This document shows, piece by piece, positions 2,882-60,591 of a stretch of DNA of 64,000 nt; positions within the stretch are counted from its first letter, which is position 1; each line of letters opens with the position of its first letter. The translations under genes were made by a program, and so were the position numbers. The notes under the pieces were generated by a model, which made no database searches, was not told the DNA's origin, and was given only the letters and a program-made list of their open reading frames with translations. Origin of the DNA: Blautia sp. (GTDB lineage: Bacteria > Bacillota > Clostridia > Lachnospirales > Lachnospiraceae); the NCBI RefSeq assembly GCF_034090745.1, contig NZ_JAXDRZ010000008.1; one strand, written 5' to 3'.

Positions 2882-2908
2882 AATGATACCCCCTTTTTTA
2901 GAAAAATA

Positions 2909-4331: not shown

Positions 4332-4359
4332 CTGCTGCAATTTCTTAAGTTATGTATTT

Positions 4360-39113: not shown

Positions 39114-39259
39114 GAAAAACCATAAAAATACTTTTCATGCATAGTGATATATGATACAATTAAAGTACTATGAATAGCTGTGTCTGTTTGTGGAAAACAG
39201 ATATAGAGGAGAGTTCAGACAGGCTGTCTGAGAATGTATGTTTGATTGAGGAGCAGATT

Positions 39260-39694: not shown

Positions 39695-40803
39695 CAGCAT
39701 TATTGGAATTTAAACAGAAGATCAAAAGCCTGTATTCAAAGTATGAAATGTATCTGCAGCCGCTGATAAAATTCGCTCTGGCTCTTATATATTTTGTATG
39801 GATCAATTCAAATATGGGATATATGACAGTTCTGGATAATATTTTCGTTGTCCTGATCCTGGCACTGATCTGTTCGATACTCCCATCTGGAATGATGATA
39901 TTTACCGGCTATGGACTGATGGTGGCTCACAGTTATGTACTGGGCATTGATGTAGCTGCTTTTATGCTTGTACTGATATTGTTTATGCTGATCATGTTTC
40001 TCAGATTCAGCTCCGGCCAGAATATCGTTCTGGTTTTGACACCTATGGCATGTGCCTTTGATCTTCCGGTACTTTTGCCTATTGGATGCGGACTGCTTGG
40101 AAATGCACTTTCCGCTCTTCCGGCGGCAGGCGGAGTTATTATTTATTATTTTATAAGATTCCTCAGAACGCAGTCCCAGATCCTTCTGAGTGCAGACACA
40201 CAGATTTTTGACAGAATCACTATTCTGGCAGACGGTCTGATGAAGAATGGTGAGATGTGGCTTACACTGGTTGCGTTTGTTGTTGTTATTTTGGCAGTAA
40301 ACCTGATCAGAACAAGAACGTTTGATTATGCGTGGCATACAGCTATTGTAGCAGGCGGAGTCATCTATGTTGTGCTTATGCTTGCAGGAAGCAGCATGAT
40401 GGGTGTTTCTATTTCTGTAGTGCCGATGATCATTTTTGCAGTGGCAGCGGTTCTGATCGGACTTGTTTTGGAGTTTTTTGTGTATGGAGGAGATTATACT
40501 CGTACAGAAAGACTTGAATATGAGGACGATGAGTATTATTATTATGTGAAAGCAGTTCCAAAGGCTCTTGTAACAACCTCTGAAAGAAGTATCAAGAAGA
40601 TCAATGCAGAGCCTGTAAGAGAAGAGCGAAAGCAGACGGAACGAGTGGTAAAATATAATGAACCACTTTTTCAGGGAGAAGAAGCTCCCAGAAGGAGAAA
40701 AAAAGAAAGTCCGGTACAGGACGAGGAAACAGTAATACGGAAACCCATTGTAGATGATGTGGATTTTGAGAAAAAACTGGAAGAATCACTGAAAGATCTG
40801 TAA
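39691..40803 (+). CDS. Hypothetical polytopic membrane protein
   Basis: About 8 hydrophobic segments and a charged C-terminal tail with a YEDDEYYYYVKAVPK motif; lies upstream of cdaA. Confidence 0.75.
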   Translation: MTALLEFKQKIKSLYSKYEMYLQPLIKFALALIYFVWINSNMGYMTVLDNIFVVLILALICSILPSGMMIFTGYGLMVAHSYVLGIDVAAFMLVLILFMLIMFLRFSSGQNIVLVLTPMACAFDLPVLLPIGCGLLGNALSALPAAGGVIIYYFIRFLRTQSQILLSADTQIFDRITILADGLMKNGEMWLTLVAFVVVILAVNLIRTRTFDYAWHTAIVAGGVIYVVLMLAGSSMMGVSISVVPMIIFAVAAVLIGLVLEFFVYGGDYTRTERLEYEDDEYYYYVKAVPKALVTTSERSIKKINAEPVREERKQTERVVKYNEPLFQGEEAPRRRKKESPVQDEETVIRKPIVDDVDFEKKLEESLKDL

Positions 40804-46011: not shown

Positions 46012-47094
46012 ATGAGAACATATCTGGTAACAGGCGGAGCGGGATTTATTGGATCCAATTATATCCACTACATGTTTCAGAAATATGACAATGAGATCCG
46101 CATTATCAATGTGGACAAGCTGACTTATGCAGGAAACCTGGAAAATCTGAAAGACGTTGAAAACAGAGAAAACTATACTTTTGTAAAGGCAGATATCTGT
46201 GACAGCGAAGCCATTATGAAGATTTTTGATGAAAATGATATTGACCGTGTTGTTCATTTTGCAGCGGAAAGCCATGTAGACAGAAGTATCCGCAATCCGG
46301 AAGTGTTTGTAAAGACAAATGTACTGGGAACTCTGGTTATGCTTAACGCAGCAAAATCTGCCTGGGAGCTTCCTGACGGAACCTTTAAACCGGACAAAAA
46401 ATTCCTTCACGTTTCTACAGATGAGGTGTATGGCTCTCTTGAGGATGAGGGGGGATTTTTCTATGAAACCACTCCATATGATCCGCACAGCCCTTATTCT
46501 GCAAGTAAGGCATCTTCAGATATGCTGGTGAAATCTTATATGGATACCTATAAATTTCCGGCGAATATTACAAACTGCAGCAATAACTATGGACCATACC
46601 AGTTCCCGGAAAAGCTGATTCCGCTGATCATCAATAATGCTCTTCAGGGTAAGAAGCTTCCGGTATACGGAGACGGCAAAAATGTTCGTGACTGGCTGTA
46701 TGTTATGGATCACGCAAAGGGTATTGATATGGTTCAGGAAAAAGGACGTCTTTTTGAAACCTATAATATCGGCGGACATAATGAAAAGCAGAATATCCAG
46801 ATCATCCATATTATTCTGGATGCTCTTCAGGAGATGCTTCCGGAAGGAGATCCAAGAAGAGAACTTGTCAGTGAAAATCTGATCACCTATGTAGAAGATC
46901 GTAAGGGTCATGACCGTCGTTATGCCATTGCTCCGGATAAGATCAAAGAAGAAGTAGGCTGGTATCCGGAAACATGTTTTGAAGACGGTATCCGACTGAC
47001 TATTAAGTGGTTTTTTGAAAATGAGGACTGGATGAAAAATGTAACAAGCGGAGATTATCAGAAATATTACGAAGACATGTACAAAACAAAATAA
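46012..47094 (+). CDS. rfbB: dTDP-glucose 4,6-dehydratase
   Basis: GGAGFIG, AAESHVDRSI, STDEVYG, YSASK and NNYGPYQFPEKLIP motifs. Confidence 0.96.
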   Translation: MRTYLVTGGAGFIGSNYIHYMFQKYDNEIRIINVDKLTYAGNLENLKDVENRENYTFVKADICDSEAIMKIFDENDIDRVVHFAAESHVDRSIRNPEVFVKTNVLGTLVMLNAAKSAWELPDGTFKPDKKFLHVSTDEVYGSLEDEGGFFYETTPYDPHSPYSASKASSDMLVKSYMDTYKFPANITNCSNNYGPYQFPEKLIPLIINNALQGKKLPVYGDGKNVRDWLYVMDHAKGIDMVQEKGRLFETYNIGGHNEKQNIQIIHIILDALQEMLPEGDPRRELVSENLITYVEDRKGHDRRYAIAPDKIKEEVGWYPETCFEDGIRLTIKWFFENEDWMKNVTSGDYQKYYEDMYKTK

Positions 47095-47151: not shown

Positions 47152-47195
47152 TGCTGCAGTTTAAGGTAATGCCGGAACTGCAGCATTGTTTTTTT
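47152..47195 (+). terminator. Intrinsic terminator after rfbB
   Basis: 10-bp stem TGCTGCAGTT/AACTGCAGCA with a 14-nt loop, then TTGTTTTTTT. Confidence 0.65.
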
Positions 47196-47322
47196 GTTTA
47201 AGAGGGATAAGACTGTCTGAGGATAACATACAAAGCGGATTTTGAGACACTTTAAAATCCTGTGGAAAGACAGGCGATAAAATGATAAAATATAAGACAG
47301 AACAGAAATGAGGGTGTTTAAA

Positions 47323-49491
47323 ATGAAAAAGATTGTGATCATTGGAGCCAATGATTTTCAGAAACCTTTGATACAAAAAGCAAAAACAATGGGATATGAG
47401 ACCCATGTATTTGCCTGGCGGGAAGGTGCCACAGGTGCAGAAGATGCAGATTTCTTTTATGAGATCAGTATTACGGAAAAAGATCAAATCCTGGATATAT
47501 GCAGAAAGATACAGCCGGATGCAGTGGCAACCATAGGATCGGATCTGGCAAATATTACAGTTCAGTATCTGGCAGAAAAATTAGGACTTCCCGGAAACAG
47601 CAGGGAGTGTATCCAGAATTCCACCAATAAAGCGTCTATGCGTCTTGCTTTTCAGGCGGCTGGTATTCCGGTACCGTTTTTTAAAACAGTAGAAGAGGGC
47701 GAAAAGTACAGTCCACAGTCATATCCTGTGATTGTGAAGCCTACGGACCGTTCCGGAAGCAGAGCAATCACCAAAGTATATAAAGAAGATGATCTGGCAG
47801 AAGCTGTTATGAATGCTGCATCTCAGTCTTTTGAAAAAAAGGCGATCATAGAGGAATATATAGAGGGGGCAGAGTACAGCGTTGAGACCATAAGCTATAA
47901 GGGGCATCACACCTGTCTGGCTGTTACAAAAAAATATACCACAGGAAGCCCTCATTATATAGAGGTGGCTCATATACAGCCGGCTCCTTTGACAGAGGAA
48001 ATGGAAAACCGGGTGAAAAAACTTGTTTTCAGAGCATTAGATGCGCTGGGAGTCGTTTGTGGAGCTGCTCATAGTGAACTGAGGATCAGTAAAAAAGGAG
48101 AAATCCGTATTATTGAAATCGGCTCCCGCATGGGCGGAGACTGTATTGGATCAGACCTTGTTCCTCTTTCTGCAGGTCAGGATTTTGTGGGAATGGTAGT
48201 AGATACAGCATCAGGAAAACCACCTGTATTAAAAGAAGCGGACAGACATGTGGCTGCCATTCGTTTCCTTATGAATGAAAATGATGAGAAACTGCTTGCG
48301 GAACTGCAGGAAAAACACCCGGATAAGCTGCGTAAAGTAGTGATAGAAGGAGAGGTAAAAAAGGCAGATATCGTGGACAGCGGAAGCAGACCTGGATTTT
48401 TTATTCTGCAGGCGGACTCCCATAAAGAAATGGAAGAACTGCTTCATCATGGTCCATGGGAAAATCCTCTTGAAGAGCTTCCAGAAACACCTGTACAGAA
48501 GCTGGGATTTTCCGGAGGAGAGATCAACTGGCAGGCTCCGGGGATTCCAGGCTGGCAGACATCATCTGCACATATACCCTGCAATCATTTTTATATGAAG
48601 AGAGACGATCTGCTGCCGTTTTCTTTTGGAGGAAACAAGGTTCGCTTTGCTCAGAAATTTCTGGAAGATATGAAAAGAGAACATTGCGACAGTATGATCA
48701 TTTATGGAAATTATCATTCCAATCTTTGCCGGATACTGTCAACTCTTTGCCATAAGCTGGGAATGCCCTGCTATATGGTTCATAATACAGAAGATATAAA
48801 AGAACAAAAAGAAACACAGAACAGCCGGGTGATCCGGGCTATGGGTGTAAGGGAGATCACATGCGGAAAAACAGGAATTGCTGATGCAGTGCAGCAGGCT
48901 GTGGATGAACTGACTGAAAAAGGATACAGACCTTATTATATTTACGGAAATACGAAAGGTCAGGGACGGGAATGGGTTCCTGTGGAAGCTTATGCGGAGG
49001 AATATGAAGAAATATGCCGTCAGGAAGAAGAAAAAGGGATTCATTTTGACTATATTTTTCTGGCATCCAGTACCAATGCCACTCAGGCCGGGCTGCTTGC
49101 AGGAAGCCTGAAAGCAGGAGACGGCAGGAAGATCATCGGTATTTCTGTTTCTCGAAATGCAAAAAGGGGAAAAGAGGTAATTGCCTCTGATCTTAATGCA
49201 TATGCAGATAAGTTTGGCTATAGCTTTCCGGAAGATTGGAAAGAGCATATTTATTTTACGGACGAATATCTGGGAGACGGATACGGACGATATTCATCTA
49301 AAACAGCGGATATTATCAGAAAAATATACGGGGAAGAGGGAATACCTCTTGATATGACCTATACAGGAAAGGCATTTTATGGTATGGTAAGATATCTGGA
49401 AGAAAATCAGATTCATGATAAAAATATTCTGTTTCTTCATACGGGAGGAACCCCTTTGTTTTTTGATTTTCTGGAGGAGAACGATCTTTAA
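47323..49491 (+). CDS. ATP-grasp ligase fused to a D-cysteine desulfhydrase/ACC-deaminase-family PLP domain
   Basis: N-terminal half: VIVKPTDRSGSRAI, IIEEYIEGAEYSVE, IIEIGSRMGG. C-terminal half: TPVQKL, KRDD...GGNK, TYTGKA, LHTGG. ATG at 47323 has an RBS; the ORF track starts at 47308. Confidence 0.82.
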   Translation: MKKIVIIGANDFQKPLIQKAKTMGYETHVFAWREGATGAEDADFFYEISITEKDQILDICRKIQPDAVATIGSDLANITVQYLAEKLGLPGNSRECIQNSTNKASMRLAFQAAGIPVPFFKTVEEGEKYSPQSYPVIVKPTDRSGSRAITKVYKEDDLAEAVMNAASQSFEKKAIIEEYIEGAEYSVETISYKGHHTCLAVTKKYTTGSPHYIEVAHIQPAPLTEEMENRVKKLVFRALDALGVVCGAAHSELRISKKGEIRIIEIGSRMGGDCIGSDLVPLSAGQDFVGMVVDTASGKPPVLKEADRHVAAIRFLMNENDEKLLAELQEKHPDKLRKVVIEGEVKKADIVDSGSRPGFFILQADSHKEMEELLHHGPWENPLEELPETPVQKLGFSGGEINWQAPGIPGWQTSSAHIPCNHFYMKRDDLLPFSFGGNKVRFAQKFLEDMKREHCDSMIIYGNYHSNLCRILSTLCHKLGMPCYMVHNTEDIKEQKETQNSRVIRAMGVREITCGKTGIADAVQQAVDELTEKGYRPYYIYGNTKGQGREWVPVEAYAEEYEEICRQEEEKGIHFDYIFLASSTNATQAGLLAGSLKAGDGRKIIGISVSRNAKRGKEVIASDLNAYADKFGYSFPEDWKEHIYFTDEYLGDGYGRYSSKTADIIRKIYGEEGIPLDMTYTGKAFYGMVRYLEENQIHDKNILFLHTGGTPLFFDFLEENDL

Positions 49492-49493
49492 TT

Positions 49494-50681
49494 ATGAAAA
49501 AAATAATGATTCTTGGCGCCAGTTATTCTCAGCTTCCTCTTTATGAGGAAGCAAAAAAACTGGGCATTTCAACAGTGGCTGCCAGCATTCCGGGAGAATG
49601 GCCGGGATTTCAGGCAGCCGATGAATTTACTTATACAGATATATCAGATCCTGATGCTGTACATAAGGCGGCAGAAAGGCTTCATGTAGACGGGATTGCC
49701 ACCTGCTGTCTGGATACCGGAGTGAGGGCTCTGGGTTATGCCTGTGAACAGCTGGGGCTGAAAGGACTGAGTGCGAAAGCTGCGGAAATCAGCAGTAATA
49801 AATTCAAAATGAAAGAAGCATTTATGGCAGGAGGGGTAAACTGTGCACGTCACATCTGTGTCCGAAACAGACAGGAGCTTGCAGAAGCTTTGGAATGTCT
49901 GAAATTTCCTGTAGTTCTTAAGGCAGTGGATCTGATGGGAAGCAGAGGAATCTTCCGGTGCAATACAAAAGAAGAAGCATTTGAGCGGTATGAAGATACG
50001 ATGAAGGCTACCGGAAAAGATTACTGTCTGGCAGAGGAGTTTATTGAGGGTGAAACGCTTGGCTGTGAGGCGATGATCTCCAATGGAAAGCTGCTTTATT
50101 GTCTTCCGAACAATATCGATGCTTTTCAGAGTTATGTACCAACACCCATAGGGCATTCTGTTCCCTACAGAAAACAGGAGACCCTGGGAGCAAAGGTGGA
50201 AGAGCAGGTAATGCTTGCCATTCAGGCAGTGGGGCTTGATAATTGTGCTGTCAATTGTGATCTGATCGAAAAAGATGGAAATATCTATGTGATCGAGATT
50301 ACGGGAAGGGCGGGTGCAACCTGTCTGCCGGAAACAGTAGGCTTATATTATGGAATAAATTATTATGAGGCAATCGTGCGGCTTGCCATGGATATGGAGC
50401 CGGAAAAATTATTTGCCGGTTACAAACCCCGGCAGTCCAGTCTTTCCAGGATATTGACTTCGGACAGATGCGGCATTGTAAAAGAAATCCATAATGGAAA
50501 TTGTCCGGCAGAGGATATTATTGATCTTTCTTTTAATATTCAGCCGGGAGATCAGGTGAACCGTTACGAAAATGGAAGAGACCGTATTGGCCAGGTGATC
50601 CTGACAGGGGAAAATCTGGATGCCTGTGAAAAGCGTCTGGAGGATATTTTGTCGAAAATTAACATTGAATTTACAGTATGA
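49494..50681 (+). CDS. ATP-grasp domain protein (amide-ligase type)
   Basis: VVLKAVDLMGSRGI, AEEFIEGET and YVIEITGRAGA motifs; similar layout to the upstream ATP-grasp. Confidence 0.82.
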   Translation: MKKIMILGASYSQLPLYEEAKKLGISTVAASIPGEWPGFQAADEFTYTDISDPDAVHKAAERLHVDGIATCCLDTGVRALGYACEQLGLKGLSAKAAEISSNKFKMKEAFMAGGVNCARHICVRNRQELAEALECLKFPVVLKAVDLMGSRGIFRCNTKEEAFERYEDTMKATGKDYCLAEEFIEGETLGCEAMISNGKLLYCLPNNIDAFQSYVPTPIGHSVPYRKQETLGAKVEEQVMLAIQAVGLDNCAVNCDLIEKDGNIYVIEITGRAGATCLPETVGLYYGINYYEAIVRLAMDMEPEKLFAGYKPRQSSLSRILTSDRCGIVKEIHNGNCPAEDIIDLSFNIQPGDQVNRYENGRDRIGQVILTGENLDACEKRLEDILSKINIEFTV

Positions 50682-50696: not shown

Positions 50697-51080
50697 ATGA
50701 GAAATGACCATGACTCAAAAAAAAGTACATATCTGCTGCTTCATATCAGTCTTTTGTTCAGCTCATTAAGCGGTGTCTGCTCTAAAATGGCTTCCGGATA
50801 TACAGACCGTATTTTTTCACTGCAGTTTATTTTTTGGTTCGGGCTGGTGTTTGTGATCATGTTCGGCTATGCAGTGATCTGGCAGCAGATCCTGAAGCGT
50901 ATGCCCCTGACAGTGGCATATGCCAACCGCCCTGTGACATTGATCTGGGGCATTATTTGGGGCGCGCTGATTTTTGGCGAAAAGATTACATGGAATATGA
51001 TTGCCGGAGCAGTGATCATTTTTGCCGGAATCTATCTGGTAACCTCAGAAAATTTACAGAAGGGCGGTGAGAAACATTGA
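50697..51080 (+). CDS. SMR/EamA-like 4-TM protein (ArnE/ArnF-like flippase subunit)
   Basis: 127 aa with four TM segments; WQQILKRMPLTVAY and LIFGEKIT motifs. Confidence 0.75.
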   Translation: MRNDHDSKKSTYLLLHISLLFSSLSGVCSKMASGYTDRIFSLQFIFWFGLVFVIMFGYAVIWQQILKRMPLTVAYANRPVTLIWGIIWGALIFGEKITWNMIAGAVIIFAGIYLVTSENLQKGGEKH

Positions 51081-51421
51081 GTAGTTTTCAGATATCTGTA
51101 TGTATCCTGCTTCTGTCTGTATTTATCTCATCTGTTTCTCAGATTATCCTGAAAAAAGCAGCAAATAAAACATATGACAGCCCGCTGAAGGAATATCTGA
51201 ATCCTATGGTGATCGGAGCCTACGGCCTTTTTTTCTGCTCTGTGATCCTTACTATGCTGGCACTGCGGAATCTGCCCCTTTCGATGTCGCCGATTCTGGA
51301 ATCCACGGGGTATATTTTTGTTTCGGTGATGGGATATTTCTTTCTGAAAGAAAGATTCAGCAAAAGGAAACTTATGGGATTTGCCCTGATACTTGCGGGG
51401 ATCTTTATATTTAACCTATAG
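51077..51421 (+). CDS. SMR/EamA-like 4-TM protein (partner subunit)
   Basis: 114 aa; SQIILKK, ALRNLPLS and FFLKERFS motifs; 4-nt overlap with the previous gene; TTG start. Confidence 0.75.
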   Translation: MSSFQISVCILLLSVFISSVSQIILKKAANKTYDSPLKEYLNPMVIGAYGLFFCSVILTMLALRNLPLSMSPILESTGYIFVSVMGYFFLKERFSKRKLMGFALILAGIFIFNL

Positions 51422-51437
51422 AAACGAGGGAGAAAAG

Positions 51438-52406
51438 ATGCTGGTATCGATTGTCATACCGTGCTATAATTCAGAGCACACCATCGGCAAGGTGGTGGAG
51501 CTTGCAATAGAAGAGTTCAAGAAACTAAAAGATTATGAATGTGAGTTTGTGCTTGTAAACGATTATTCCAGAGACGGTACCTGGAAGTCCATTCATGGAC
51601 TGACAGAGAAATACCCGAATGTAAAAGGAATCAACCTTGCAAAAAATTTCGGCCAGCATAATGCTATTATGGCAGGAATGAATTATGCAGAGGGAGATCT
51701 GATCCTGGGGATGGATGACGATATGCAGAATCATCCTTCTCAGATTCCGCAGTTTTTGGATAAGATGGAAGAAGGCTATGACATTGTGTTCGGAGTTTTT
51801 AAACAAAGGAAATTTTCCTGGTTTAAAAATCTTACAGGAGCAGTAAGCCGCTTCCTTCTGTGGCATCTTCTGGACCGCCCGAAGGATATCCAGATGAGCA
51901 GCTTCTGGTGCTGCCGGAAGTACGTCAGGGATGAAGTGGTAAAATATGACGGGTACAATACTTTTCTTCAGGTACTGTTTTTCCGCACCACACATAATAT
52001 TGCAAATATAGAGATCGAGCATTTTGAAAGAGAGGTAGGGACTTCCAATTATAATTTCAGGAGAGGTCTGAAACTTTTTATGTCCTGCCTGAATTTTACG
52101 GTAATCCCTCTCCGGCTTGCGACTTTTTTTGGAACATTGTTTTCGGCGGCCGGATTTATTGGGGCAATTGTAGTATTTATCCGTAAATTGCTGGATCCGT
52201 CCATAGCAATTGGCTGGTCTTCTCTTATGTGTGCCATGCTGGTACTGTTTGGCATCTGTTTCCTGATGCTTGGCATTGTAGGAGAATATCTGGGCAAGCT
52301 GATGCTGAATGTGAACAAAACACCCCAGTATGTGATCCGGGACAGAGAAAATATTTCTGAAGCAGCTGACAACAAGGATGAAGAAAAACAGGGAAATAAA
52401 GAATGA
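51438..52406 (+). CDS. GT2 polyprenol-phosphate glycosyltransferase (ArnC/GtrB-like)
   Basis: SIVIPCYN, VNDYSRD, KNFGQHNA and MDDDMQN motifs with two C-terminal TM segments. Confidence 0.88.
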   Translation: MLVSIVIPCYNSEHTIGKVVELAIEEFKKLKDYECEFVLVNDYSRDGTWKSIHGLTEKYPNVKGINLAKNFGQHNAIMAGMNYAEGDLILGMDDDMQNHPSQIPQFLDKMEEGYDIVFGVFKQRKFSWFKNLTGAVSRFLLWHLLDRPKDIQMSSFWCCRKYVRDEVVKYDGYNTFLQVLFFRTTHNIANIEIEHFEREVGTSNYNFRRGLKLFMSCLNFTVIPLRLATFFGTLFSAAGFIGAIVVFIRKLLDPSIAIGWSSLMCAMLVLFGICFLMLGIVGEYLGKLMLNVNKTPQYVIRDRENISEAADNKDEEKQGNKE

Positions 52407-53530
52407 TAGATTTTAACAGACCTGCACTTGTAGGGAAAGAACTGAATTATATTAAAGATGCCGTGGATCAGGGAATGCTCTGCGGTGACGGTAAATATAC
52501 AAAACTCTGCTCACAGTGGATGAAGGAAAGGTTTCATGCATCTCAGGTGTTTCTGACCACTTCCTGCACACACGCACTGGAGATGGCAGCGTATCTTTGC
52601 GATATCCAGCCGGGAGATGAGGTGATCATGCCTTCTTATACATTTGTATCTACTGCAGATGCTTTTGTACTTCGTGGGGCAAAGATCGTGTTCGTGGATA
52701 TCCGGCCGGATACCATGAATATAGATGAAAAGCTGATCGAACAGGCAGTTACAGAAAAAACAAAAGCTATAGTGCCTGTCCATTATGCAGGTGTTTCCTG
52801 TGAAATGGACCGGATCATGGAGCTGGCGAAAAAATATGATCTGAAAGTAGTGGAAGATGCCGCCCAGGGTGTGGAGGCCTACTACCATGGAAAGGCTCTC
52901 GGAACGATCGGTGATTTTGGATGTTACAGTTTTCATGAGACAAAGAATTATACTATGGGAGAGGGCGGAGCTCTGGTATTTCAGGACAACCAGTACCAGG
53001 AAAAAGCAGAGATCCTCAGAGAAAAAGGAACGGACAGAAGTAAATTTTTCCGGGGACAGGTAGATAAATACCGATGGATCGATTATGGATCCTCTTATCT
53101 TCCAAGTGAAATGAATGCGGCTTATCTGTATGCCCAGCTTGAGGAAGCAGAAAAGATCGATGGCAAGCGCCACCAGATCTACGACTATTATAATGAAGGT
53201 CTTAAGAGCCTTGAGGAACAGGAGAAGATCCAGAGACCTGTTGTTCCGGAAGGATGCAAACATAATGCGCATATGTATTATATTAAAGTAAAAGATCTCG
53301 AAACAAGGAGCCGTCTGATCGCCTACCTGAAAGAAAACGGAATCTGCACAGCCTTTCACTATGTACCGCTGCACAGTTCGCCGGCAGGAGAGAAATTTGG
53401 AAGATTTTCTGGAGAAGATGTTTATACTACAAAAGAAAGTGAACGTCTTTTGCGTCTTCCGATGTTTTACAATCTGTCCATGTCTGATGTAGAATATATT
53501 ACAGAAAAGATACTTGCGTTTGAGTTTTGA
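52403..53530 (+). CDS. rffA: dTDP-4-amino-4,6-dideoxygalactose transaminase (WecE/RffA-like)
   Basis: SCTHALE, TFVSTA, VEDAAQ, SFHETKNY (PLP Lys) and FFRGQVDKY motifs; close to enterobacterial WecE as recalled. Confidence 0.88.
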   Translation: MIDFNRPALVGKELNYIKDAVDQGMLCGDGKYTKLCSQWMKERFHASQVFLTTSCTHALEMAAYLCDIQPGDEVIMPSYTFVSTADAFVLRGAKIVFVDIRPDTMNIDEKLIEQAVTEKTKAIVPVHYAGVSCEMDRIMELAKKYDLKVVEDAAQGVEAYYHGKALGTIGDFGCYSFHETKNYTMGEGGALVFQDNQYQEKAEILREKGTDRSKFFRGQVDKYRWIDYGSSYLPSEMNAAYLYAQLEEAEKIDGKRHQIYDYYNEGLKSLEEQEKIQRPVVPEGCKHNAHMYYIKVKDLETRSRLIAYLKENGICTAFHYVPLHSSPAGEKFGRFSGEDVYTTKESERLLRLPMFYNLSMSDVEYITEKILAFEF

Positions 53531-53544
53531 CGGAGGAGAGAAGA

Positions 53545-54807
53545 ATGAGAAAAAAATTTGCAGGTGCGGCAGTTCTGGGACTGATATCCATGATTCTGCC
53601 GGCATCCACTGTACAGGCAGTAACTGTAAACTTTGGGACACCGGCAGCAGTAGCTACAGATAATATTCAGGGCTGGCCAAAGGGACCGGATACAGTTTCC
53701 GAGACAGCCGTGCTTATTGACGCAGACACAGGAGCTGTCCTTTATGATAAAGGAATGGACGAATACAGATATCCGGCCAGTACTACAAAAATCATGACCG
53801 TGCTTACAGCAATCGAAAACAGCTCACCAAAAGACACCGTTACTTTTACAGAAACCGGAGTCAGAGATGTAACCTGGGACAGTTCCAACATTGGAATGAA
53901 GCTGGGAGAGACCATCACCATGAAAGACTGCTGGTTTGCAGCGATCATTAAATCGGCCAATGAAGTATGTGCCCAGATGGCAGAATATGTAGGCGGTACA
54001 GAGGCTCAGTTTATAGAGATGATGAACCAGAGGGCAAAGGAGATCGGATGTAAGAATACACATTTTGCCAATGCCAGCGGTCTCCCGGATGCAAACCACT
54101 ATACAACTGCTCATGACCTGGCCAAGATCATGAGGGCAGGTCTTAGAAACCACAGGTTCCGTCAGGTGATCAGCGGAGTTAATTATACTATTCCGGCTAC
54201 GAACCTCAGCGAAGCCAGAGGGATGCATACCCATATGCCTTTGATGGCAAAGGAATCCAATCTTTATTATGAAGGATGTATTGGCGGAAAGACCGGAAAT
54301 ACCAATGATGCAGGACATACGCTTGTAACTGCAGCAGAAAGAAACGGCCGCACATATATAGCGGTAACGCTTCGGGCACCGGATCTTGGAGCAAACTGTA
54401 CCGATACGATTGCACTTTTTGATTATGCATTTAATAATTTTGATACAATAACTTTAAATGGAAAAAATATGACAGTACCTAAAGGGGTTACTGTGGATGA
54501 CCTTACTGTAAAAACAAAAGAAAAAAATGGACAGATCATGAATCAGTTTTATTACAGCGGTCAGTTTGTAGGCTATCTCATGACTCCAAAGTTTTCCCCT
54601 ACCCCTCAGGTAACACAGACTGTATCGGCAGAAAGTAATGCGCAGTCTGTCAGCGGATCAGCAGAAACCGTTTCGGAAGAGGAAAGCAGTTTGTCAGATA
54701 CTTCAAAACTGCTTCTGGGAGTCATGGCAGTTATGGCAGTGACTCTTGTGATCTTAATGGTGGCACTGCATTTCAAAGAGAAAAAAATGTACAGAACCAG
54801 ACGATAA
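53545..54807 (+). CDS. D-alanyl-D-alanine carboxypeptidase (peptidase S11) with C-terminal TM anchor
   Basis: ASTTK (SxxK), KSAN (SxN) and KTG motifs; signal peptide; C-terminal hydrophobic helix; ATG at 53545 follows GGAGG. Confidence 0.88.
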   Translation: MRKKFAGAAVLGLISMILPASTVQAVTVNFGTPAAVATDNIQGWPKGPDTVSETAVLIDADTGAVLYDKGMDEYRYPASTTKIMTVLTAIENSSPKDTVTFTETGVRDVTWDSSNIGMKLGETITMKDCWFAAIIKSANEVCAQMAEYVGGTEAQFIEMMNQRAKEIGCKNTHFANASGLPDANHYTTAHDLAKIMRAGLRNHRFRQVISGVNYTIPATNLSEARGMHTHMPLMAKESNLYYEGCIGGKTGNTNDAGHTLVTAAERNGRTYIAVTLRAPDLGANCTDTIALFDYAFNNFDTITLNGKNMTVPKGVTVDDLTVKTKEKNGQIMNQFYYSGQFVGYLMTPKFSPTPQVTQTVSAESNAQSVSGSAETVSEEESSLSDTSKLLLGVMAVMAVTLVILMVALHFKEKKMYRTRR

Positions 54808-54819: not shown

Positions 54820-55698
54820 ATGAAGGGAATTATTTTAGCAGGCGGTTCAGGAACCAGATTATATCCATTAACAAAGGCAATCTCCAAACAGATCATGCCG
54901 GTATATGACAAGCCAATGATCTACTATCCGCTTTCTACACTGATGCTGGCAGGAATCCGTGAGATCCTGATCATTTCCACACCGAGAGATCTTCCTGTAT
55001 TCCAGGAACTTCTTGGAGACGGAAAACAGCTGGGAATGAGATTTGAGTATGCGGTGCAGGAGCAGCCGAGAGGACTGGCAGACGCTTTTATTATCGGAGA
55101 GGAATTTATTGGAAACGATGCAGTGGCTCTTGTTCTGGGCGATAATATTTTTTATGGCCAGAGCTTTTCCAGAGTACTCCAGAATGCATATCAGAGAACG
55201 GAGACAGAAAAGGGAGCAACCATTTTTGGATACTATGTAAGAGATCCGAGAGAGTACGGAGTAGTAGAGTTTGACGAAAACGGAAAGGCTCTTTCTATTG
55301 AAGAAAAACCGGAGCATCCCAAGTCAAATTATGCAGTTCCGGGACTTTATTTCTATGATAATGATGTAGTGGAGATCGCAAAAAACGTGAAGCCATCTGC
55401 AAGAGGCGAGATTGAGATCACCAGCATTAACAACGAATATCTGAACAGAGGCACTCTCAAGGTAGAAACCCTTGGAAGAGGCTTTGCATGGCTTGATACC
55501 GGAAATCATGATTCTCTTCTTGATGCGGCTGATTTTGTTTCTGCGTTCCAGAAGCGTCAGGGACTTTATATTTCCTGTATTGAGGAAATTGCATATAAAC
55601 GTGGATTTATCACAAAAGAGCAGCTTGTGGAACTGGCGCAGCCTCTTCTGAAAACTGCTTATGGAAAATATATGATCGAAGTTGCGGAGGGCTTATAA
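54820..55698 (+). CDS. rfbA: Glucose-1-phosphate thymidylyltransferase
   Basis: [25 protein letters not shown] and RGELEIT-like RGEIEIT motifs. Confidence 0.97.
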
Positions 55699-55699
55699 A

Positions 55700-56269
55700 A
55701 TGGGAAAGATCACAGTAGAAACCTGTCATATTGAAGGACTGAAGGTGATTACGCCGGCAGTGTTCGGAGACGAACGCGGATACTTTATGGAGACTTATAA
55801 TTATAATGACTATAAGGCGGCAGGGATCGATCAGGAGTTTGTGCAGGATAATCAGTCCAGCTCCAGAAAAGGCGTTTTAAGAGGACTTCATTTCCAGATC
55901 AACTATCCCCAGGACAAGCTGGTTCGTGTAGTCAGCGGCGAGGTATTTGATGTGGCCGTAGACCTGAGAGAAGGTTCTCCTACTTACGGGCAGTGGTATG
56001 GCGTGCTGCTTTCTGCGGAGAACAAAAAACAGTTTTTTATTCCCAAGAATTTTGCACATGGTTTTCTGGTGCTTTCAGATTCCGCAGAATTTGCCTATAA
56101 ATGCACAGACTTTTATCATCCGAATGATGAGGGCGGTCTGGCATACAACGACCCGGACATTGCAGTAGAGTGGCCGATCCCAGAGGGAATGGAACTGATC
56201 ATGTCCGAAAAAGATCAGAAGTGGGGAAGCTTTCAGGAATATTCCGCAAACAGGAGCAAAAAGGATTGA
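55700..56269 (+). CDS. rfbC: dTDP-4-dehydrorhamnose 3,5-epimerase
   Basis: DERGYFME, QDNQSSS, LRGLHFQ and FAHGF motifs; ATG at 55700 follows GGAGG. Confidence 0.95.
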   Translation: MGKITVETCHIEGLKVITPAVFGDERGYFMETYNYNDYKAAGIDQEFVQDNQSSSRKGVLRGLHFQINYPQDKLVRVVSGEVFDVAVDLREGSPTYGQWYGVLLSAENKKQFFIPKNFAHGFLVLSDSAEFAYKCTDFYHPNDEGGLAYNDPDIAVEWPIPEGMELIMSEKDQKWGSFQEYSANRSKKD

Positions 56270-57072
56270 AAAAAGAAACCTGGCTGTCAGGGGAACTTTA
56301 CAGGAACAGAAGATTAGTATTTTCCCTGGCAAAAAACGACTTTAAAACAAAATATGCAGGTTCCTATTTTGGAACCGTCTGGGCTTTTATCCAGCCTATT
56401 GTGACCATCTGTGTGTACTGGTTTGTATTCGGACTTGCCCTGAGAAACGGAGCGGACAGAGGGGTACCCTTTGTGCTTTGGCTGGTGGCTGGTCTGGTAC
56501 CCTGGTTTTTCTTTCAGGACGGACTGGTAGGCGGTACCAATGCACTTCTGGAATACAATTATCTGGTAAAAAAGGTAGTATTTAATATACGGATCCTTCC
56601 GGTGGTAAAGGTGATCTCAGCAGCTTTTGTACACTGCTTTTTTGTGCTGATCGTGCTTGTGATCTACACCTGTATGGGATATCCTCCTACCTGGTATGCA
56701 CTGCAGCTGATCTATTACAGCTTCTGTGTTTTTATGCTGATCCTTGCAGTGACTTATTTTTCCAGCGCAGTGGTGGTATTTTTCCGTGACCTCAGTCAGA
56801 TCATCAACATTGGTCTGCAGGTAGGCGTGTGGGTGACCCCTATCATGTGGAACTTTAACGATCTTGGTCTTGAAGGGATTCTGACAAAAATTCTGAAACT
56901 GAATCCTGTGTTCTATGTGGTACAGGGATATCGTGATTCCCTGATCGACCATATCGGAATCTGGCAGCATCCATGGCTGACCCTGTACTTCTGGGTATTT
57001 ACCATTTTGCTGTTTGTTCTGGGAACGCGGCTGTTTAAGAAGCTTCAGGTACACTTTGCAGATGTCATGTAA
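56266..57072 (+). CDS. Polysaccharide ABC exporter permease (Wzm/TagG family)
   Basis: KYAGSYFGTVWAFIQP, FRDLSQI and LNPVFY motifs; TTG at 56266 overlaps the rfbC stop (the ORF track starts at 56170). Confidence 0.9.
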   Translation: MKKETWLSGELYRNRRLVFSLAKNDFKTKYAGSYFGTVWAFIQPIVTICVYWFVFGLALRNGADRGVPFVLWLVAGLVPWFFFQDGLVGGTNALLEYNYLVKKVVFNIRILPVVKVISAAFVHCFFVLIVLVIYTCMGYPPTWYALQLIYYSFCVFMLILAVTYFSSAVVVFFRDLSQIINIGLQVGVWVTPIMWNFNDLGLEGILTKILKLNPVFYVVQGYRDSLIDHIGIWQHPWLTLYFWVFTILLFVLGTRLFKKLQVHFADVM

Positions 57073-57084
57073 ATGGAGAGTAAG

Positions 57085-58341
57085 ATGAGTGAAATTGCAA
57101 TTCAGGTAAAACATCTGGATAAGATGTATAAATTATATAACAAACCTTCTGACAGGCTCCGGGAAACCCTGGGGCTTAAGGTGCCTGTAAGGGAACATTA
57201 TGCCCTCAGAGATGTAAACTTTCAGGTGGAGAGGGGAGAGACGGTAGGAATTATCGGAACCAATGGTTCCGGTAAATCTACAATCTTAAAAATCATCACA
57301 GGAGTTCTGAACCCAACAGCCGGAGAAGTGACCGTAAACGGAAGGATTTCGGCTCTTCTGGAGCTGGGAGCCGGATTTAACACGGAATATACCGGGATCG
57401 AAAACATTTATCTCAACGGAACCATGATGGGATTTTCCAGAGAAGAGGTGGACGCAAGGCTTCAGGATATTCTGGACTTTGCAGATATCGGAGATTTTGT
57501 TTACCAGCCGGTAAAAGCATATTCCAGCGGAATGTTTGTCCGCCTGGCTTTTGCGGTAGCCATCAACATTGATCCGGAGATCCTGATCGTAGACGAGGCT
57601 CTGTCTGTGGGCGATGTATTTTTCCAGGCCAAATGTTACCGTAAATTCGAGGAATTTAAAAAAATGGGCAGGACTATTCTTTTTGTCAGCCACGATCTCA
57701 GCAGTATCTCCCGCTATTGCGACAGGGTTATCCTTCTTAACAAAGGAGTAAAAATGGAGGAAGGCTCTCCAAAGCAGATGGTGGATATGTATAAACAGCT
57801 TCTGGTGGGTCAGGATCCTGCAAAGGCAGAGGAAAATAAGGAAACCCAGAAGGAGAACTGGAGCGAGCAGTTCCAGGTGAACCCCAATATGCTGGAATAT
57901 GGCAGTAAGCTGGCAGAAATTGTGGATTTTGCAGTGCTGGATGAGAAAGGTCTGTGTACAAACACCATTGAAAAAGGAAGTTCCTTCCAGATTAAAATGA
58001 AGGTTGTTTTTCATGAGAGTATCCAGGAACCGATCATGGCTTATACCTTTAAGGATATTAAAGGAACCGAGATCACAGGAACCAACACTCTTTTTGAAAA
58101 AATGGCTGTGGAGCATTCGGAAGCAGGCGATACCTGTACAGTAACCTTTCGGCAGGATATGTTCCTTCAGGGAGGCGAATATCTCCTTTCCTTTGGATGT
58201 ACCGGTTATAAGGACGGGGAGTTCACTGTTTTCCACAGACTGTATGACGCATGTAACATTACGGTAGTTTCCAATAAAAATACCGTTGGTTTTTATGATA
58301 TGAACTCGAAAGTAGAGATTCACTACGGAGAAAAAGCATGA
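57085..58341 (+). CDS. Polysaccharide ABC exporter ATPase with C-terminal Wzt_C-like domain
   Basis: GTNGSGKST, YSSGM and IVDEALSVGD motifs; about 170-aa C-terminal extension ending GEYLLSFG. Confidence 0.92.
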   Translation: MSEIAIQVKHLDKMYKLYNKPSDRLRETLGLKVPVREHYALRDVNFQVERGETVGIIGTNGSGKSTILKIITGVLNPTAGEVTVNGRISALLELGAGFNTEYTGIENIYLNGTMMGFSREEVDARLQDILDFADIGDFVYQPVKAYSSGMFVRLAFAVAINIDPEILIVDEALSVGDVFFQAKCYRKFEEFKKMGRTILFVSHDLSSISRYCDRVILLNKGVKMEEGSPKQMVDMYKQLLVGQDPAKAEENKETQKENWSEQFQVNPNMLEYGSKLAEIVDFAVLDEKGLCTNTIEKGSSFQIKMKVVFHESIQEPIMAYTFKDIKGTEITGTNTLFEKMAVEHSEAGDTCTVTFRQDMFLQGGEYLLSFGCTGYKDGEFTVFHRLYDACNITVVSNKNTVGFYDMNSKVEIHYGEKA

Positions 58342-60521
58342 AAGAAAAGATCGGACAGGTGACTCTGGATGATACCTGTTATCCAGGGCAGGATTTATAC
58401 AGTGACGGAATTGTAGAGGATGAAATGCTGGAGATTGCCAGAACATACCCGGAGGAGGAATGGAACCGGGTGATCGCCCAGCGGAAAAGCTGGCCCATCC
58501 TTTATCATTTCTCGCATGTAAGAGAAAATATTTTAAGCTGGCTTCCTTTTACCGGACAGGAAAGTGTATTGGAAATCGGTTCCGGCTGCGGAGCGATTAC
58601 AGGTGCCCTTTGCAAAAAAGCAAAAAAGGTCACCTGTATCGAGCTTTCAAAAAAAAGAAGTGAGATCAATGCCTGGAGACACAGAGACTGTGAGAATCTG
58701 ACCATTCTTATGGGGAATTTCCAGGAGATCGAGCCTGCGCTGACGGAGAAGTATGATTACATTACTCTGATCGGCGTTTTTGAGTATGGGGAAAATTATA
58801 TCCAGAGCGAAACTCCTTATGTGGATTTTCTCAGAACTATTGCCCGTCATCTGAAGCCGGAGGGAAAGATCATTCTTGCCATTGAAAACCGTTTTGGACT
58901 GAAATACTGGGCAGGCTGCACGGAAGATCATTTTGGAACTTTATTTGAGGGACTGGAAGGATATCCTTCCACAAAAGGCGTTAAGACCTTTACGAAAAAG
59001 GAACTGACAGATATTCTGGAAAAAGCGGGAAATCTCAAGGCAAGCTGGTATTATCCATTTCCGGATTACAAGCTTCCCATGACCATATATTCTGACAGAC
59101 GTCTTCCTCTGAAGGGAGAACTGAACCGAATGGAAACAAACTTTGACAGACTGAGACTTCAGCTGTTTCAGGAATCCTCGGTATATGACTCGCTTCTGGA
59201 TAACCATATGTTTCCGGAATTTTCCAACTCGTTCCTTTTGCTGATCGGAAAAGAGGAACTCCGGCCGGAGGTAGTCTATTCTAAATTTTCCAATGAGAGG
59301 GACCAGCGGTTTGCCCTTCGGACAGACATCTGTGAACCGGGACGGTATGAGAGATATGTACGGAAGCTTCCGGTAGTGCCAAAGGCAGAGGAGCATGTAA
59401 AGAATCTGGAACGGATCCAGAGAGAATTGAATACGATTTATGAAAAAGAAGGTATTGAGCTGAATAACTGCCGGTTTGAGCAGGGAGCGGCAAAACTGGA
59501 ATATCTGGAGGGGGTAACTCTGGAGGAAAAACTGGATATGCTTCTGGAACAGGGAAAATATCAGGAACTGGAAGAGCTGTTTTTCTTTTATCTGAGAAAG
59601 ATACGCAGTCTTCACTGCAAGGAAAAGTTCAGAAAGACACCGGAGTTTATTCAGGTATTTGGCGATGCGCCTCTTGAGGGAGAATATGATGCCTCCGGCA
59701 TGTCTAATATTGATCTTGTTCCGGCAAACCTTCTGATTCAGAGGGACAGACAGGTAGTCATTGATTATGAATGGACCTTCCGTTTTCCGATTCCTGCGGA
59801 TTTCATTCAGTACCGGATGATTCATTATTATCTGGAAAGCGACGGCAAACGTCATGTTCTGAAGAACCGGAATTTTTACGGAAAAGCCGGGATCACGGAA
59901 AAAGACATGGAAATTTACAGGGAAATGGAACGGAACTTCCAGAACTATATGAAAGGAGATCATGTTCCCCTTCTGGAGCTTTATGAAGAGGTTTCTCCGG
60001 GGAAAGTGGAGATCCTGCCATATTATGAGCAGATGAGGCTTGCAGGAGCAGAAAGAAGGCTTCAGGTATTTTATGACCGGGGAGAAGGCTTCCGGGAGGA
60101 GGATTCAGCCGTTTATCCTATGAGCAGAGAAGGACTGGATCTGGAGATCAGAATTCCGGCAGGCGTACACAGACTGCGTCTGGATCCGGGAGAAGCGGCA
60201 GGAGGACTGATTCTGAAGGAACTTTCTTATGAGGATGGAACGCCGGCAGATTTTACTGCAAACGGATTCCCCATGGGAGCAGGTGCATATTATTTCGGAG
60301 GCGGAGACCCTCAGTTTATAACAGGGGATGTTTCCGGAAAGACAAAGCTCTGTATCCGGATACGGACTATGAAAGAAACAGATGCAAGAAAAGATTTCTG
60401 GAAGAATTTTTCCAGAGTATCTGCCGAAAAGGATGCGGAAATCCGCAGACTGAATGAAAAGATTACCCAGATGGAAAATACAAAGATCTGGAAATTATAT
60501 AGAAGCATTAAGAAAAAATAA
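58338..60521 (+). CDS. SAM-dependent methyltransferase with kinase-like domain and short C-terminal coiled coil (WbdD-like)
   Basis: VLEIGSGCGAIT motif I; DLVPAN...IDYEW kinase-like motifs; EKDAEIRRLNEKITQMENTKIWK tail. Confidence 0.72.
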   Translation: MKEKIGQVTLDDTCYPGQDLYSDGIVEDEMLEIARTYPEEEWNRVIAQRKSWPILYHFSHVRENILSWLPFTGQESVLEIGSGCGAITGALCKKAKKVTCIELSKKRSEINAWRHRDCENLTILMGNFQEIEPALTEKYDYITLIGVFEYGENYIQSETPYVDFLRTIARHLKPEGKIILAIENRFGLKYWAGCTEDHFGTLFEGLEGYPSTKGVKTFTKKELTDILEKAGNLKASWYYPFPDYKLPMTIYSDRRLPLKGELNRMETNFDRLRLQLFQESSVYDSLLDNHMFPEFSNSFLLLIGKEELRPEVVYSKFSNERDQRFALRTDICEPGRYERYVRKLPVVPKAEEHVKNLERIQRELNTIYEKEGIELNNCRFEQGAAKLEYLEGVTLEEKLDMLLEQGKYQELEELFFFYLRKIRSLHCKEKFRKTPEFIQVFGDAPLEGEYDASGMSNIDLVPANLLIQRDRQVVIDYEWTFRFPIPADFIQYRMIHYYLESDGKRHVLKNRNFYGKAGITEKDMEIYREMERNFQNYMKGDHVPLLELYEEVSPGKVEILPYYEQMRLAGAERRLQVFYDRGEGFREEDSAVYPMSREGLDLEIRIPAGVHRLRLDPGEAAGGLILKELSYEDGTPADFTANGFPMGAGAYYFGGGDPQFITGDVSGKTKLCIRIRTMKETDARKDFWKNFSRVSAEKDAEIRRLNEKITQMENTKIWKLYRSIKKK

Positions 60522-60591
60522 ACTGCCGGAAATCCCAAAGATGGAAAAGAAATTCAGGGACAGCGGCAGTTCAGTCAGAATGAGGTAAAAC

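Follow-up and report, generated by a model that had tools for sequence, protein, structure and literature searches.

A single gene in which an ATP-grasp ligase is joined to a pyridoxal 5'-phosphate (PLP)-dependent enzyme lies at 47323-49491 on the plus strand of a 64,000-nucleotide stretch of Blautia sp. DNA (NCBI RefSeq assembly GCF_034090745.1, contig NZ_JAXDRZ010000008.1), referred to here as the window. Our analysis revealed that its PLP half belongs to a large clade that is specific to glycan loci and spans Clostridia, Bacilli, and Spirochaetes. The gene heads a tightly packed run of plus-strand genes after a 228-bp gap behind rmlB, and its single open reading frame (ORF) extends, as the original prediction had stated, from ATG 47323 to TAA 49489-49491, encoding 722 residues. 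A putative ribosome-binding site, as read from the sequence (GAGGGTG, 47310-47316), stands directly before ATG 47323. The in-frame ATG at 47308 was rejected as the start codon, since it overlaps this site and homologues begin with MKKIVIIGAN, as does the product of ATG 47323. The gene is divided as follows, DcyD denoting D-cysteine desulfhydrase and ACC 1-aminocyclopropane-1-carboxylate:

47323..48447, plus strand: ATP-grasp half (residues 1-375), an amide ligase of the L-amino-acid-ligase type according to Pfam, structure 3vot, and Foldseek
48448..48582, plus strand: interdomain linker (residues 376-420), variable, holding an insert of about 25 residues
48583..49491, plus strand: PLP half (residues 421-722 and the stop codon), with the fold-type II DcyD/ACC-deaminase fold; codon of K439 at 48637-48639

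Pfam assigned ATP-grasp_4 to residues 133-275 (E 2e-24) and PALP to residues 415-708 (E 5e-26), and the ATP-grasp half also matched ATP-grasp_3 and Dala_Dala_lig_C. The nearest solved structures were the L-amino-acid ligase BL00235 for the N-terminal half (3vot; residues 66-314, E 2e-27) and Salmonella D-cysteine desulfhydrase for the C-terminal half (4d8t; residues 421-716, E 4e-30). An AlphaFold2 model of the 722-residue fusion, built on 64 homologues, reached a mean predicted local distance difference test (pLDDT) score of 89.8 and a predicted template-modeling (pTM) score of 0.87, with disorder confined to residues 405-415 (pLDDT <50). In Foldseek, the N-terminal half of the model matched 3vot with a template-modeling (TM) score of 0.77, and the C-terminal half superposed on DcyD (7ysk/4d8t) with a TM score of 0.85 and a root-mean-square deviation of 2.6 Å, in line with the DcyD-like fold that had been predicted. 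No PDB entry spanning both halves was found in the Foldseek/PDB search. The insert of about 25 residues that had been noticed ahead of the KRDD motif is real, but it occurs only in the closest relatives of the window and lies inside the low-confidence linker; it was ruled out as a functional feature and is a lineage-specific linker expansion.

The fusion is genuine and no artefact, because independent assemblies, many homologue clusters, and low ratios of nonsynonymous to synonymous substitution (dN/dS) in both halves agree on it. A pig-gut contig is identical to the window over 47200-49600, while a mouse-gut contig and a 7.4-kb metatranscriptome contig cover the full ORF with substitutions only and no insertions or deletions. 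More than 100 clusters of full-length homologues were recovered at 37-99% identity, and the named ones, from Blautia and Lachnospiraceae, are annotated only as "pyridoxal-phosphate dependent enzyme" or as ACC deaminase/D-cysteine desulfhydrase-like. A stop codon at the junction had been named as the outcome of resequencing that would speak against the fusion; the independent contigs read through the junction without gaps, and together with the metatranscriptome contig and the full-length clusters they rule out a sequencing or assembly artefact. In pairwise comparisons with seven Blautia orthologues, dN/dS was 0.07-0.13 in the ligase half, 0.06-0.15 in the PLP half, and 0.12-0.5 in the linker, and both halves are under purifying selection.

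Active site and clade of the PLP half

All of the motifs picked out in the original prediction were located in the translated frame: KRDD at residues 426-429, GGNK with K439 (48637-48639), HSNL at 465-468, ASSTNAT at 581-587, TYTGKA at 679-684, and HTGG at 706-709. Alignment to StDcyD (4d8t, E 1.5e-30) placed N438, K439, S466, N467, Y680, and T707 on N50, K51, S78, N79, Y287, and T315, respectively, which form the active-site set contacting the PLP-substrate complex in that enzyme (PMC11193023). All six residues were invariant across the 64 fused homologues, and K439, S466, N467, Y680, and T707 were invariant or nearly so among 122 members of the PLP clade. In DcyD, Tyr287 carries out D-selective alpha-deprotonation, as does the matching tyrosine of CuyA (PMC11193023).

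Two departures from DcyD had been singled out as unusual, and both proved to be present in the gene but to differ in reach. HSNL, which replaces the QSNH of DcyD, is no peculiarity of this gene but a hallmark of the whole clade, which has SNL(C/N/S)R where DcyD has SNH and also shares tyrosines 461, 539, and 541. The divergent phosphate loop, ASSTNAT in place of SGSAGT, was confirmed as well, whereas the loss of its glycines is limited to the ligase-fused Lachnospiraceae forms, which carry SSTN(A/M/T)T; most of the clade has S-G-T-G-x-T, and intermediate loops were found in [Ruminococcus] gnavus (SSTGMT) and in clade member P0122 (CSTGTT).

Scores against curated NCBIfam models placed the PLP half well below every named family: 158.2 bits for CuyA (NF052482; cut-off 450), 147 bits for XcbE (likewise far under its cut-off), 139.6 bits for the DcyD/ACC-deaminase family (TIGR01275; cut-off 289.4), 123.7 bits for ACC deaminase (TIGR01274; cut-off 392), and 103-118 bits for the DcyD equivalogs (cut-offs 429-610). 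T681 and T707 stand where ACC deaminase has E295 and L322, which bears out the earlier view that the PLP half is DcyD-like and no true ACC deaminase. The PLP half clearly shares the fold and catalytic set of DcyD, ACC deaminase, and CuyA yet lies outside those families by curated thresholds and by context; an identity as a true ACC deaminase, DcyD, or CuyA was ruled out by the curated cut-offs, the signature residues, and the glycan-operon context.

An exhaustive HMMER search with residues 401-722 (E <1e-30, clustering at 50% identity) returned 210 clusters, mostly stand-alone proteins of 300-335 residues that are 35-54% identical to the window domain, compared with only 26-29% for DcyD. At E <=1e-20, a profile search recovered at least 5,404 clade proteins. 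Members were found in [Ruminococcus] gnavus, R. flavefaciens, Bacillus sp. 37MA, Enterococcus aquimarinus, Neobacillus, and Proteiniclasticum, and a PLP-GNAT protein came from a metagenome-assembled genome (MAG) of the Spirochaetaceae. Beyond the ligase fusions, some members carried a single GNAT domain or a pair of them, N- or C-terminally, and others were joined to a Bac_transf sugar-phosphate transferase; in the latter case, P0179 (522 residues, on a 1.6-kb metagenome contig), the partner is the domain of an initiating sugar-phosphate transferase, which again links the clade with the assembly of glycans at the membrane. The GNATs linked to the clade were most similar to RimI, the N-terminal alanine acetyltransferase.

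In all 11 clade contexts sampled, an ATP-grasp protein adjoined or was fused to the PLP domain, and a DegT transaminase was encoded in the same polysaccharide locus. One block recurred in the order Wzx, PLP, PylC-like ATP-grasp-GNAT, DegT, RmlA, RmlB, preceded by a WecF-like GT56 gene in L088, L089, and L091 (loci are designated by L numbers; L088 and L089 come from Bacillus sp. 37MA and Enterococcus aquimarinus); in R. gnavus, the order was ATP-grasp, PLP, formyltransferase, acyltransferase, DegT. UDP-glucose dehydrogenase genes were present in L078, L088, and L089. A candidate for capping an amine, be it a RimI-like GNAT, a formyltransferase, or a second ligase, was encoded in every PLP locus examined except L081/L082 and L091, and the presence of such capping enzymes beside the PLP gene argues that the unit keeps its amino group.

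The operon and its relatives in other genomes

Around the fusion gene, the window encodes the following features, in which GT2 denotes glycosyltransferase family 2:

46012..47094, plus strand: rmlB, dTDP-glucose 4,6-dehydratase (TIGR01181, 482.6 bits, cut-off 365); 91-100% conserved in Blautia loci
47263-47291, plus strand: promoter-like site, a consensus-scan match only
49494..50681, plus strand: second ATP-grasp ligase, "LAL2" (Pfam LAL_C2 and ATP-grasp), its start codon 3 nt past the stop of the fusion
50697-51080 and 51077-51421, plus strand: half-size EamA/SMR-like membrane proteins (Pfam EamA), a candidate ArnE/ArnF-like flippase
51393..52406, plus strand: GT2 polyprenyl-phosphate glycosyltransferase, ArnC/PgfS-like (Pfam Glycos_transf_2)
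52403..53530, plus strand: WecE-type dTDP-4-amino-4,6-dideoxyhexose transaminase of the DegT family (NF008687, 636 bits, cut-off 375; TIGR02379, 622 bits, cut-off 435)
53527..54807, plus strand: S11 D-Ala-D-Ala carboxypeptidase-family gene (Pfam Peptidase_S11, E 1.4e-50), of uncertain membership in the module
54820..63009, plus strand: rhamnan backbone genes rmlA, rmlC, wzm, and wzt (with Wzt_C), a 727-residue methyltransferase protein, and an 805-residue double GT2 (Pfam)

The EamA halves scored 29-34 bits against the NCBIfam ArnE and ArnF models (cut-offs 92-99), and the GT2 scored 165.5 bits against ArnC (cut-off 529) and 165.6 bits against PgfS, likewise below its cut-off. The EamA pair adjoined the ligase in almost all related loci, and most of these loci keep the order of the EamA and GT2 genes. 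The order of the rhamnan genes is kept across Blautia, their set is typical of a rhamnan exported by an ABC transporter, and the rhamnan is the presumed acceptor of the decoration. No rmlD, no GT-C transferase, including one of the ArnT type, and no formyltransferase/deformylase pair was found among the window ORFs scanned, and no uronic-acid gene was found among the window genes scanned.

The ATP-grasp half of the fusion keeps K103, K139, D142, G145-S146-R147, E177, E188, E265, and R269 invariant in the 64 homologues. Its stand-alone orthologues, of about 373 residues and 52-66% identity, occurred in some 30 loci within DegT-ligase-EamA-GT2 cassettes. LAL_C2 (PF18603) gave no Pfam match in the fused ATP-grasp half and is present in the adjacent LAL2 and in the LAL2-PLP fusions described below. 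In the Lachnospiraceae loci examined, an LAL2-type ligase always accompanied the PLP domain. Homology of the ligases does not reveal the acylating amino acid, as the matches were generic only (Ddl, PylC, L-amino-acid ligase, "carbamoyl-phosphate-synthase-like"). The top NCBIfam match of the ligase half (residues 51-332, 175 bits) was NF002563 (PRK02186), a model called "argininosuccinate lyase", of which the match covers the first 340 of 890 positions; this name and length may hint at another ATP-grasp fused to a lyase-type domain acting on amino acids, possibly a parallel case.

A tblastn comparison of the window's genes with 77 genome loci separated several arrangements:

Class A, Blautia spp., about 30 loci: arrangement as in the window
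Class B, other Lachnospiraceae, 11 loci: PLP domain (50-58% identity) fused to the LAL2 orthologue (52-58%, with LAL_C2)
Class C1, including Blautia ammoniilytica, 6 loci: two separate ligase genes, PLP domain absent
Class C2, Oscillospiraceae, Acutalibacteraceae, Roseburia CAG:303, Solibaculum, and others, about 25 loci: DegT, a ligase of the first type (about 373 residues), EamA pair, and GT2 only

L001 and L030 were 96% identical to the window, and the fusion, which the original prediction had regarded as unusual, is the standard form throughout the genus Blautia. In class B, the place of the first ligase was taken by a WbqC-family gene (L040, L041, and L073) or by another ATP-grasp (L047, L050, and L066). 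The WbqC-family genes (PF08889, E ~1e-80) lie directly behind the LAL2-PLP fusion, at 12241-12930 in L040, 2399-3088 in L041, and 12227-12928 in L073. A split form was found in L079/L080, with the order PLP (324 residues), LAL2-type ligase, two EamA genes, ATP-grasp, GT2, and DegT, so that the two activities do occur as neighboring separate genes, the stand-alone PLP gene adjoining a ligase gene.

Because a minimal cassette of DegT, ligase, EamA pair, and GT2 exists without the PLP domain (the roughly 25 loci of class C2), the first ligase type is best seen as the core enzyme acylating the sugar amine. The PLP domain, in turn, is an accessory of the whole ligase/aminotransferase module, since its fusion partner varies among LAL2-type ligases, GNATs, and a sugar-phosphate transferase, since it also stands alone, and since in some loci it is absent or decayed. 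The same observations did not bear out the earlier proposal that the PLP product is channeled to the ligase fused to it, while the broader claim that the two halves are functionally coupled in glycan biosynthesis is supported by the locus contexts. The products suggested earlier for the PLP half, a D-amino acid, a beta-substituted alanine, or a dehydroalanine, are candidates only.

Genes for DD-peptidases recurred near the module. Those Blautia loci that have the PLP domain carry the S11 gene at the position it holds in the window operon, and the loci L036-L038, which lack the domain, lack this gene too; further S11 genes adjoined the module in L080 (9348-10329) and in other Lachnospiraceae, including L081 (7464-8939) and L082, and two VanY genes adjoined the PLP and ATP-grasp genes in R. 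flavefaciens (L091, 9021-11321). These genes may reflect a D-amino-acid peptide on the glycan, or chance.

Several further features were noted. Just 3' of rmlB, at 47153-47199, a palindromic sequence (GCTGCAG...CTGCAGC, loop of 18 nt) with a run of T behind it may be a terminator, one that the scan passed over on account of its long loop. Directly upstream of the stand-alone PLP gene, L079 encodes a DUF2142 membrane protein (473 residues; 1691-3112), a candidate GT-C transferase of which no counterpart was seen in the window. In the 727-residue protein (58338-60521), a class-I methyltransferase domain (residues 60-230) is the sole recognizable part, the C-terminal 500 residues being without assignment; encoded behind wzm/wzt, this protein may be a WbdD-like terminator of rhamnan chain length. 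Between cdaA-cdaR and rmlB, an 859-residue protein (43325-45904) ends in a YkuD L,D-transpeptidase domain and weakly matches choline-binding repeats, and its identity between Blautia species is 43-92%, compared with 70-100% for its neighbors. Upstream of cdaA, two ORFs (174 and 370 residues; 39170-40803) lack a Pfam match; L081 has two ORFs of similar size (142 and 344 residues; 3479-4944) at the corresponding place, and Pfam matches neither of them.

Possible roles of the PLP half

The account that we favor, although only tentatively, is that the ORF encodes a bifunctional tailoring enzyme of an Arn-like side branch on a rhamnose-rich polysaccharide, in which the PLP half makes a non-standard amino-acid unit from a free D-amino acid for the LAL2-type ligase. 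RmlA and RmlB would make dTDP-4-keto-6-deoxyglucose, and this 4-keto-6-deoxyhexose would feed both rhamnose and the amino sugar. The WecE-type transaminase would convert it to dTDP-4-amino-4,6-dideoxyhexose (the 4-amino-4,6-dideoxy form of galactose, Fuc4N, or of glucose, Qui4N), a product to which RmlB and the transaminase, both matching their family models above the curated cut-offs, point directly. Judging from genomic context, the ATP-grasp half would then activate the carboxylate of an amino acid and form an amide on the 4-amino group of the sugar, filling the position held in known pathways by the WecD acetyltransferase or the ArnA formyltransferase, and LAL2 would add a further amino acid. 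The ArnC-like GT2 would load the acylated sugar onto undecaprenyl phosphate, the lipid-linked sugar would be flipped across the membrane by the ArnE/F-like pair, and a GT-C enzyme encoded outside the window would attach it to the rhamnan. We infer this route, from acylation of the sugar amine to delivery onto the rhamnan, with more confidence than the proposed handling of a D-configured alpha-carbon by the PLP domain, which is the weakest step: the domain may act on a free D-configured amino acid by beta-replacement, beta-elimination, or two-base racemization, and the resulting non-standard amino acid may be installed by the LAL2-type ligase and subsequently capped. Three features hint at D-amino-acid chemistry without proving it, namely, the D-selective tyrosine, the Ddl/PylC-like partner ligases, and the neighboring DD-peptidase genes. 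The role of a supplier is favored because the Ser-Asn loop is kept, S466 and N467 matching the DcyD residues S78 and N79 that touch the PLP-substrate complex.

Several observations weigh against this account. In the Blautia loci L036-L038, both ligases are present but the PLP domain is missing, L029 (4744-5633; Ruminococcus sp. AF41-9) has a frameshift within its PLP half, and in L031 (11162-11452; a Lachnospiraceae MAG) a PLP remnant of about 100 residues is left and LAL2 is missing as well; L029 and L031 are possibly snapshots of the loss of an accessory domain, or sequencing errors, and PLP-less Blautia agree no less well with editing as a dispensable step than with an obligatory supply. 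Fusion of the domain to either ligase or to GNATs leaves the user of its product unspecified. PLP binding is a prediction for a phosphate loop that has lost both glycines in the ligase-fused forms, and the DcyD family is not known to include a racemase. The ArnC-like and ArnE/F-like matches fall under the curated cut-offs, the window lacks the GT-C transferase and rmlD among its scanned ORFs, and the chemistry of the clade and the structure of the Blautia glycan are read here from sequence only.

The alternative that we take most seriously, while considering it doubtful, is that the PLP domain acts after ligation, forming an aldimine with the alpha-amino group of the residue held in amide linkage on the sugar and epimerizing it from L to D or beta-eliminating it before capping. 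Serine or cysteine would become a dehydroalanyl group, or a pyruvoyl group after hydrolysis, with the second ligase, a GNAT, or a formyltransferase as the capper. Such a tailoring step would be dispensable, as the domain is in close relatives that keep both ligases, and it would fit between ligation and capping, in keeping with the interchangeable fusion of the domain to either of the two ligases or to the capping GNAT and with the capping enzyme found in most PLP-containing loci; the pTM score of the model also suggests that the two domains are held in a fixed relative position. The known fold-type II PLP enzymes, however, all use free amino acids with a free carboxylate, the invariance of the Ser-Asn loop S466/N467 speaks for a substrate of that kind, and a free enamine would hydrolyze fast, losing the amine that the capping enzyme needs. 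It is unlikely that the ligase instead amidates the carboxylate of a uronic acid, as in Campylobacter jejuni glucuronamide, with the PLP enzyme supplying or shaping the amine partner. PLP enzymes do feed an ATP-grasp amidoligase in C. jejuni HS:2 (Cj1436-Cj1438), and the UDP-glucose dehydrogenase genes of L078, L088, and L089 would suit this reaction, but no uronic-acid gene was found among the scanned genes of the window, the minimal cassette of DegT, ligase, flippase pair, and GT2 has no dehydrogenase, and the tight block of PLP, ATP-grasp-GNAT, DegT, RmlA, and RmlB points to a dTDP-amino sugar as the shared substrate.

We also regard as quite unlikely a plain lyase that would give the ligase either ammonia, for amidation of a carboxylate, or pyruvate or 2-oxobutyrate as the N-acyl group. 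ACC deaminase is generally known to release a 2-oxo acid and ammonia. DcyD and CuyA do likewise (PMC11193023). The full conservation of the catalytic set would agree with such an activity, but loss of the amine would leave the amine-capping enzymes of most loci unexplained, and glutaminase domains are the usual source of ammonia for amidation. A non-catalytic PLP half, serving as a structural, oligomerization, or ligand-binding module, is very unlikely: the loop S-S-T-N-A-T of the ligase-fused forms does lack either glycine of the clade consensus, but the fused homologues show no variation at the Schiff-base lysine or at any catalytic or contact position, dN/dS is as low as in the ligase half, and the R. 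gnavus and P0122 loops suggest gradual drift in a segment that binds phosphate via backbone amides. Least probable, to the point of being nearly dismissed, is that a catabolic enzyme of ordinary type, whether a D-cysteine desulfhydrase, an ACC deaminase, or a cysteate sulfo-lyase, was fused to a ligase by happenstance. The top named matches are indeed CuyA, XcbE, the DcyD family, and ACC deaminase, but their scores are far under the cut-offs (158 versus 450, 140 versus 289, and 124 versus 392 bits for CuyA, the DcyD family, and ACC deaminase), the signature residues of ACC deaminase are absent, and glycan loci with ATP-grasp and DegT were found in 11 of 11 sampled contexts. The genomic setting known for CuyA, with the CuyB racemase and a transporter (PMC11193023), is absent.

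The fusion is more ordinary than had been thought, being the form found across a genus, yet it leads to thousands of enzymes of glycan loci that form one clade, and a single odd fusion has become a defined, widespread module of DegT transaminase, ATP-grasp ligase, and DcyD-like PLP enzyme, to which a capping enzyme may be added. A natural experiment is offered by the genus Blautia, in which some species carry the fusion (for example, B. wexlerae, B. schinkii, and B. caecimuris) and others lack the PLP domain (B. ammoniilytica, L038). Few Firmicutes of the human gut are as abundant as Blautia and [Ruminococcus] gnavus, whose surface glycans influence immune recognition. We consider it improbable, but conceivable, that glycan tailoring is the dedicated task of the clade, which would then be the first fold-type II PLP family of this kind; it would create or edit a D-amino-acid or dehydro-amino-acid unit on a 4-amino-4,6-dideoxyhexose, perhaps with the residue already bound to the sugar. 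In that case, the rhamnan of Blautia would bear a side branch with a D-amino-acid peptide that the neighboring DD-peptidases might process, and dominant gut commensals would have a Gram-positive counterpart of the surface-charge modification by 4-amino-4-deoxy-L-arabinose (L-Ara4N) or D-alanyl groups. Should the PLP enzyme carry out a new reaction on, or in the service of, an amino acid attached to a sugar, the range of reactions of a thoroughly studied enzyme family would widen, and the making of amino-acid-substituted deoxy-amino sugars, long known in O-antigen structures, would be explained.

Comparison with known systems

As the original prediction had suspected, no characterized protein with the ATP-grasp-PLP architecture was found in PDB, NCBIfam, or the full-text literature searched, and no paper on a cassette of DegT, ATP-grasp, and DcyD-like genes was found in that literature; a full-text search on WbqC, Blautia cell-wall polysaccharide, and the R. 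gnavus capsule returned nothing on the architecture or the cassette. Comparison with the nearest enzymes and pathways was therefore made part by part.

With DcyD (Salmonella 4d8t, Pectobacterium 7ysk) and CuyA, the PLP half shares fold-type II, the GGNK lysine, the Ser-Asn loop, the tyrosine of Y-T-G-K, and the threonine of H-T-G-G. It differs from them in being only 26-29% identical and below their cut-offs, in SNL(C/N/S)R and the tyrosines at 461, 539, and 541, in the altered phosphate loop, and in being ligase-fused and confined to glycan loci, outside sulfur or sulfonate catabolism. ACC deaminase (1rqx, 1f2d) has the same fold and lysine/tyrosine pair, and its SVTGSTQAG resembles the phosphate loop S-x-T-x-x-T-Q-A-G of the PLP half, whereas its E295/L322 correspond to T681/T707 in the fusion and its family model is matched at 124 bits versus the 392 required. 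L-amino-acid ligases (BL00235 3vot, BacD/YwfE, RizA) share the ATP-grasp fold and the predicted activation of a carboxylate followed by amide formation; unlike them, the fused half would use the amine of a nucleotide sugar, in place of a second free amino acid, as acceptor, is without LAL_C2, and carries a C-terminal PLP domain.

Among pathways, the Arn system, which puts L-Ara4N on lipid A, follows the same logic: in ArnA-F and ArnT, a DegT transaminase forms a 4-amino sugar, which is N-acylated, moved by a GT2 to undecaprenyl phosphate, and flipped by a small EamA/SMR-like pair. The window module would instead use a dTDP-6-deoxyhexose in place of UDP-Ara4N and ATP-grasp aminoacylation in place of formyl transfer; no deformylase or ArnT-like GT-C was found in the window, and the target would be a Gram-positive rhamnan instead of lipid A. 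With the Fuc4NAc branch of the enterobacterial common antigen (RmlA, RmlB, WecE, WecD, WecF, WzxE), the window shares RmlB and a WecE-type transaminase above their cut-offs, and related cassettes share WecF-like GT56 and Wzx genes, whereas the acetyl-CoA transferase WecD is replaced by one or more ATP-grasp ligases and the PLP enzyme, with or without a RimI-like GNAT.

Acylation of such sugars by amino acids has a precedent in Escherichia coli O121 and Shigella dysenteriae 7, whose genes for Qui4N(N-acetylglycyl) include VioA and WbqC. A 4-amino-4,6-dideoxyhexose is there N-acylated with a capped amino acid, and WbqC-family genes recur in L040, L041, and L073; the family PF08889 takes its name from the uncharacterized WbqC, encoded in the O121 cluster for the O antigen that contains Qui4N(N-acetylglycyl). 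That system is not known to include a PLP enzyme. In VanT/VanC/VanXY and in C. jejuni Cj1436-1438, a PLP enzyme prepares a building block that an ATP-grasp ligase installs, and the Van system also includes a DD-peptidase; the PLP folds (a type III racemase, and a type I transaminase and decarboxylase) and the products differ, so that the likeness is one of analogy only. Set beside these systems, in which amino-acid N-acylation of deoxy-amino sugars is itself known, what is new here is the proposed PLP step in that process.

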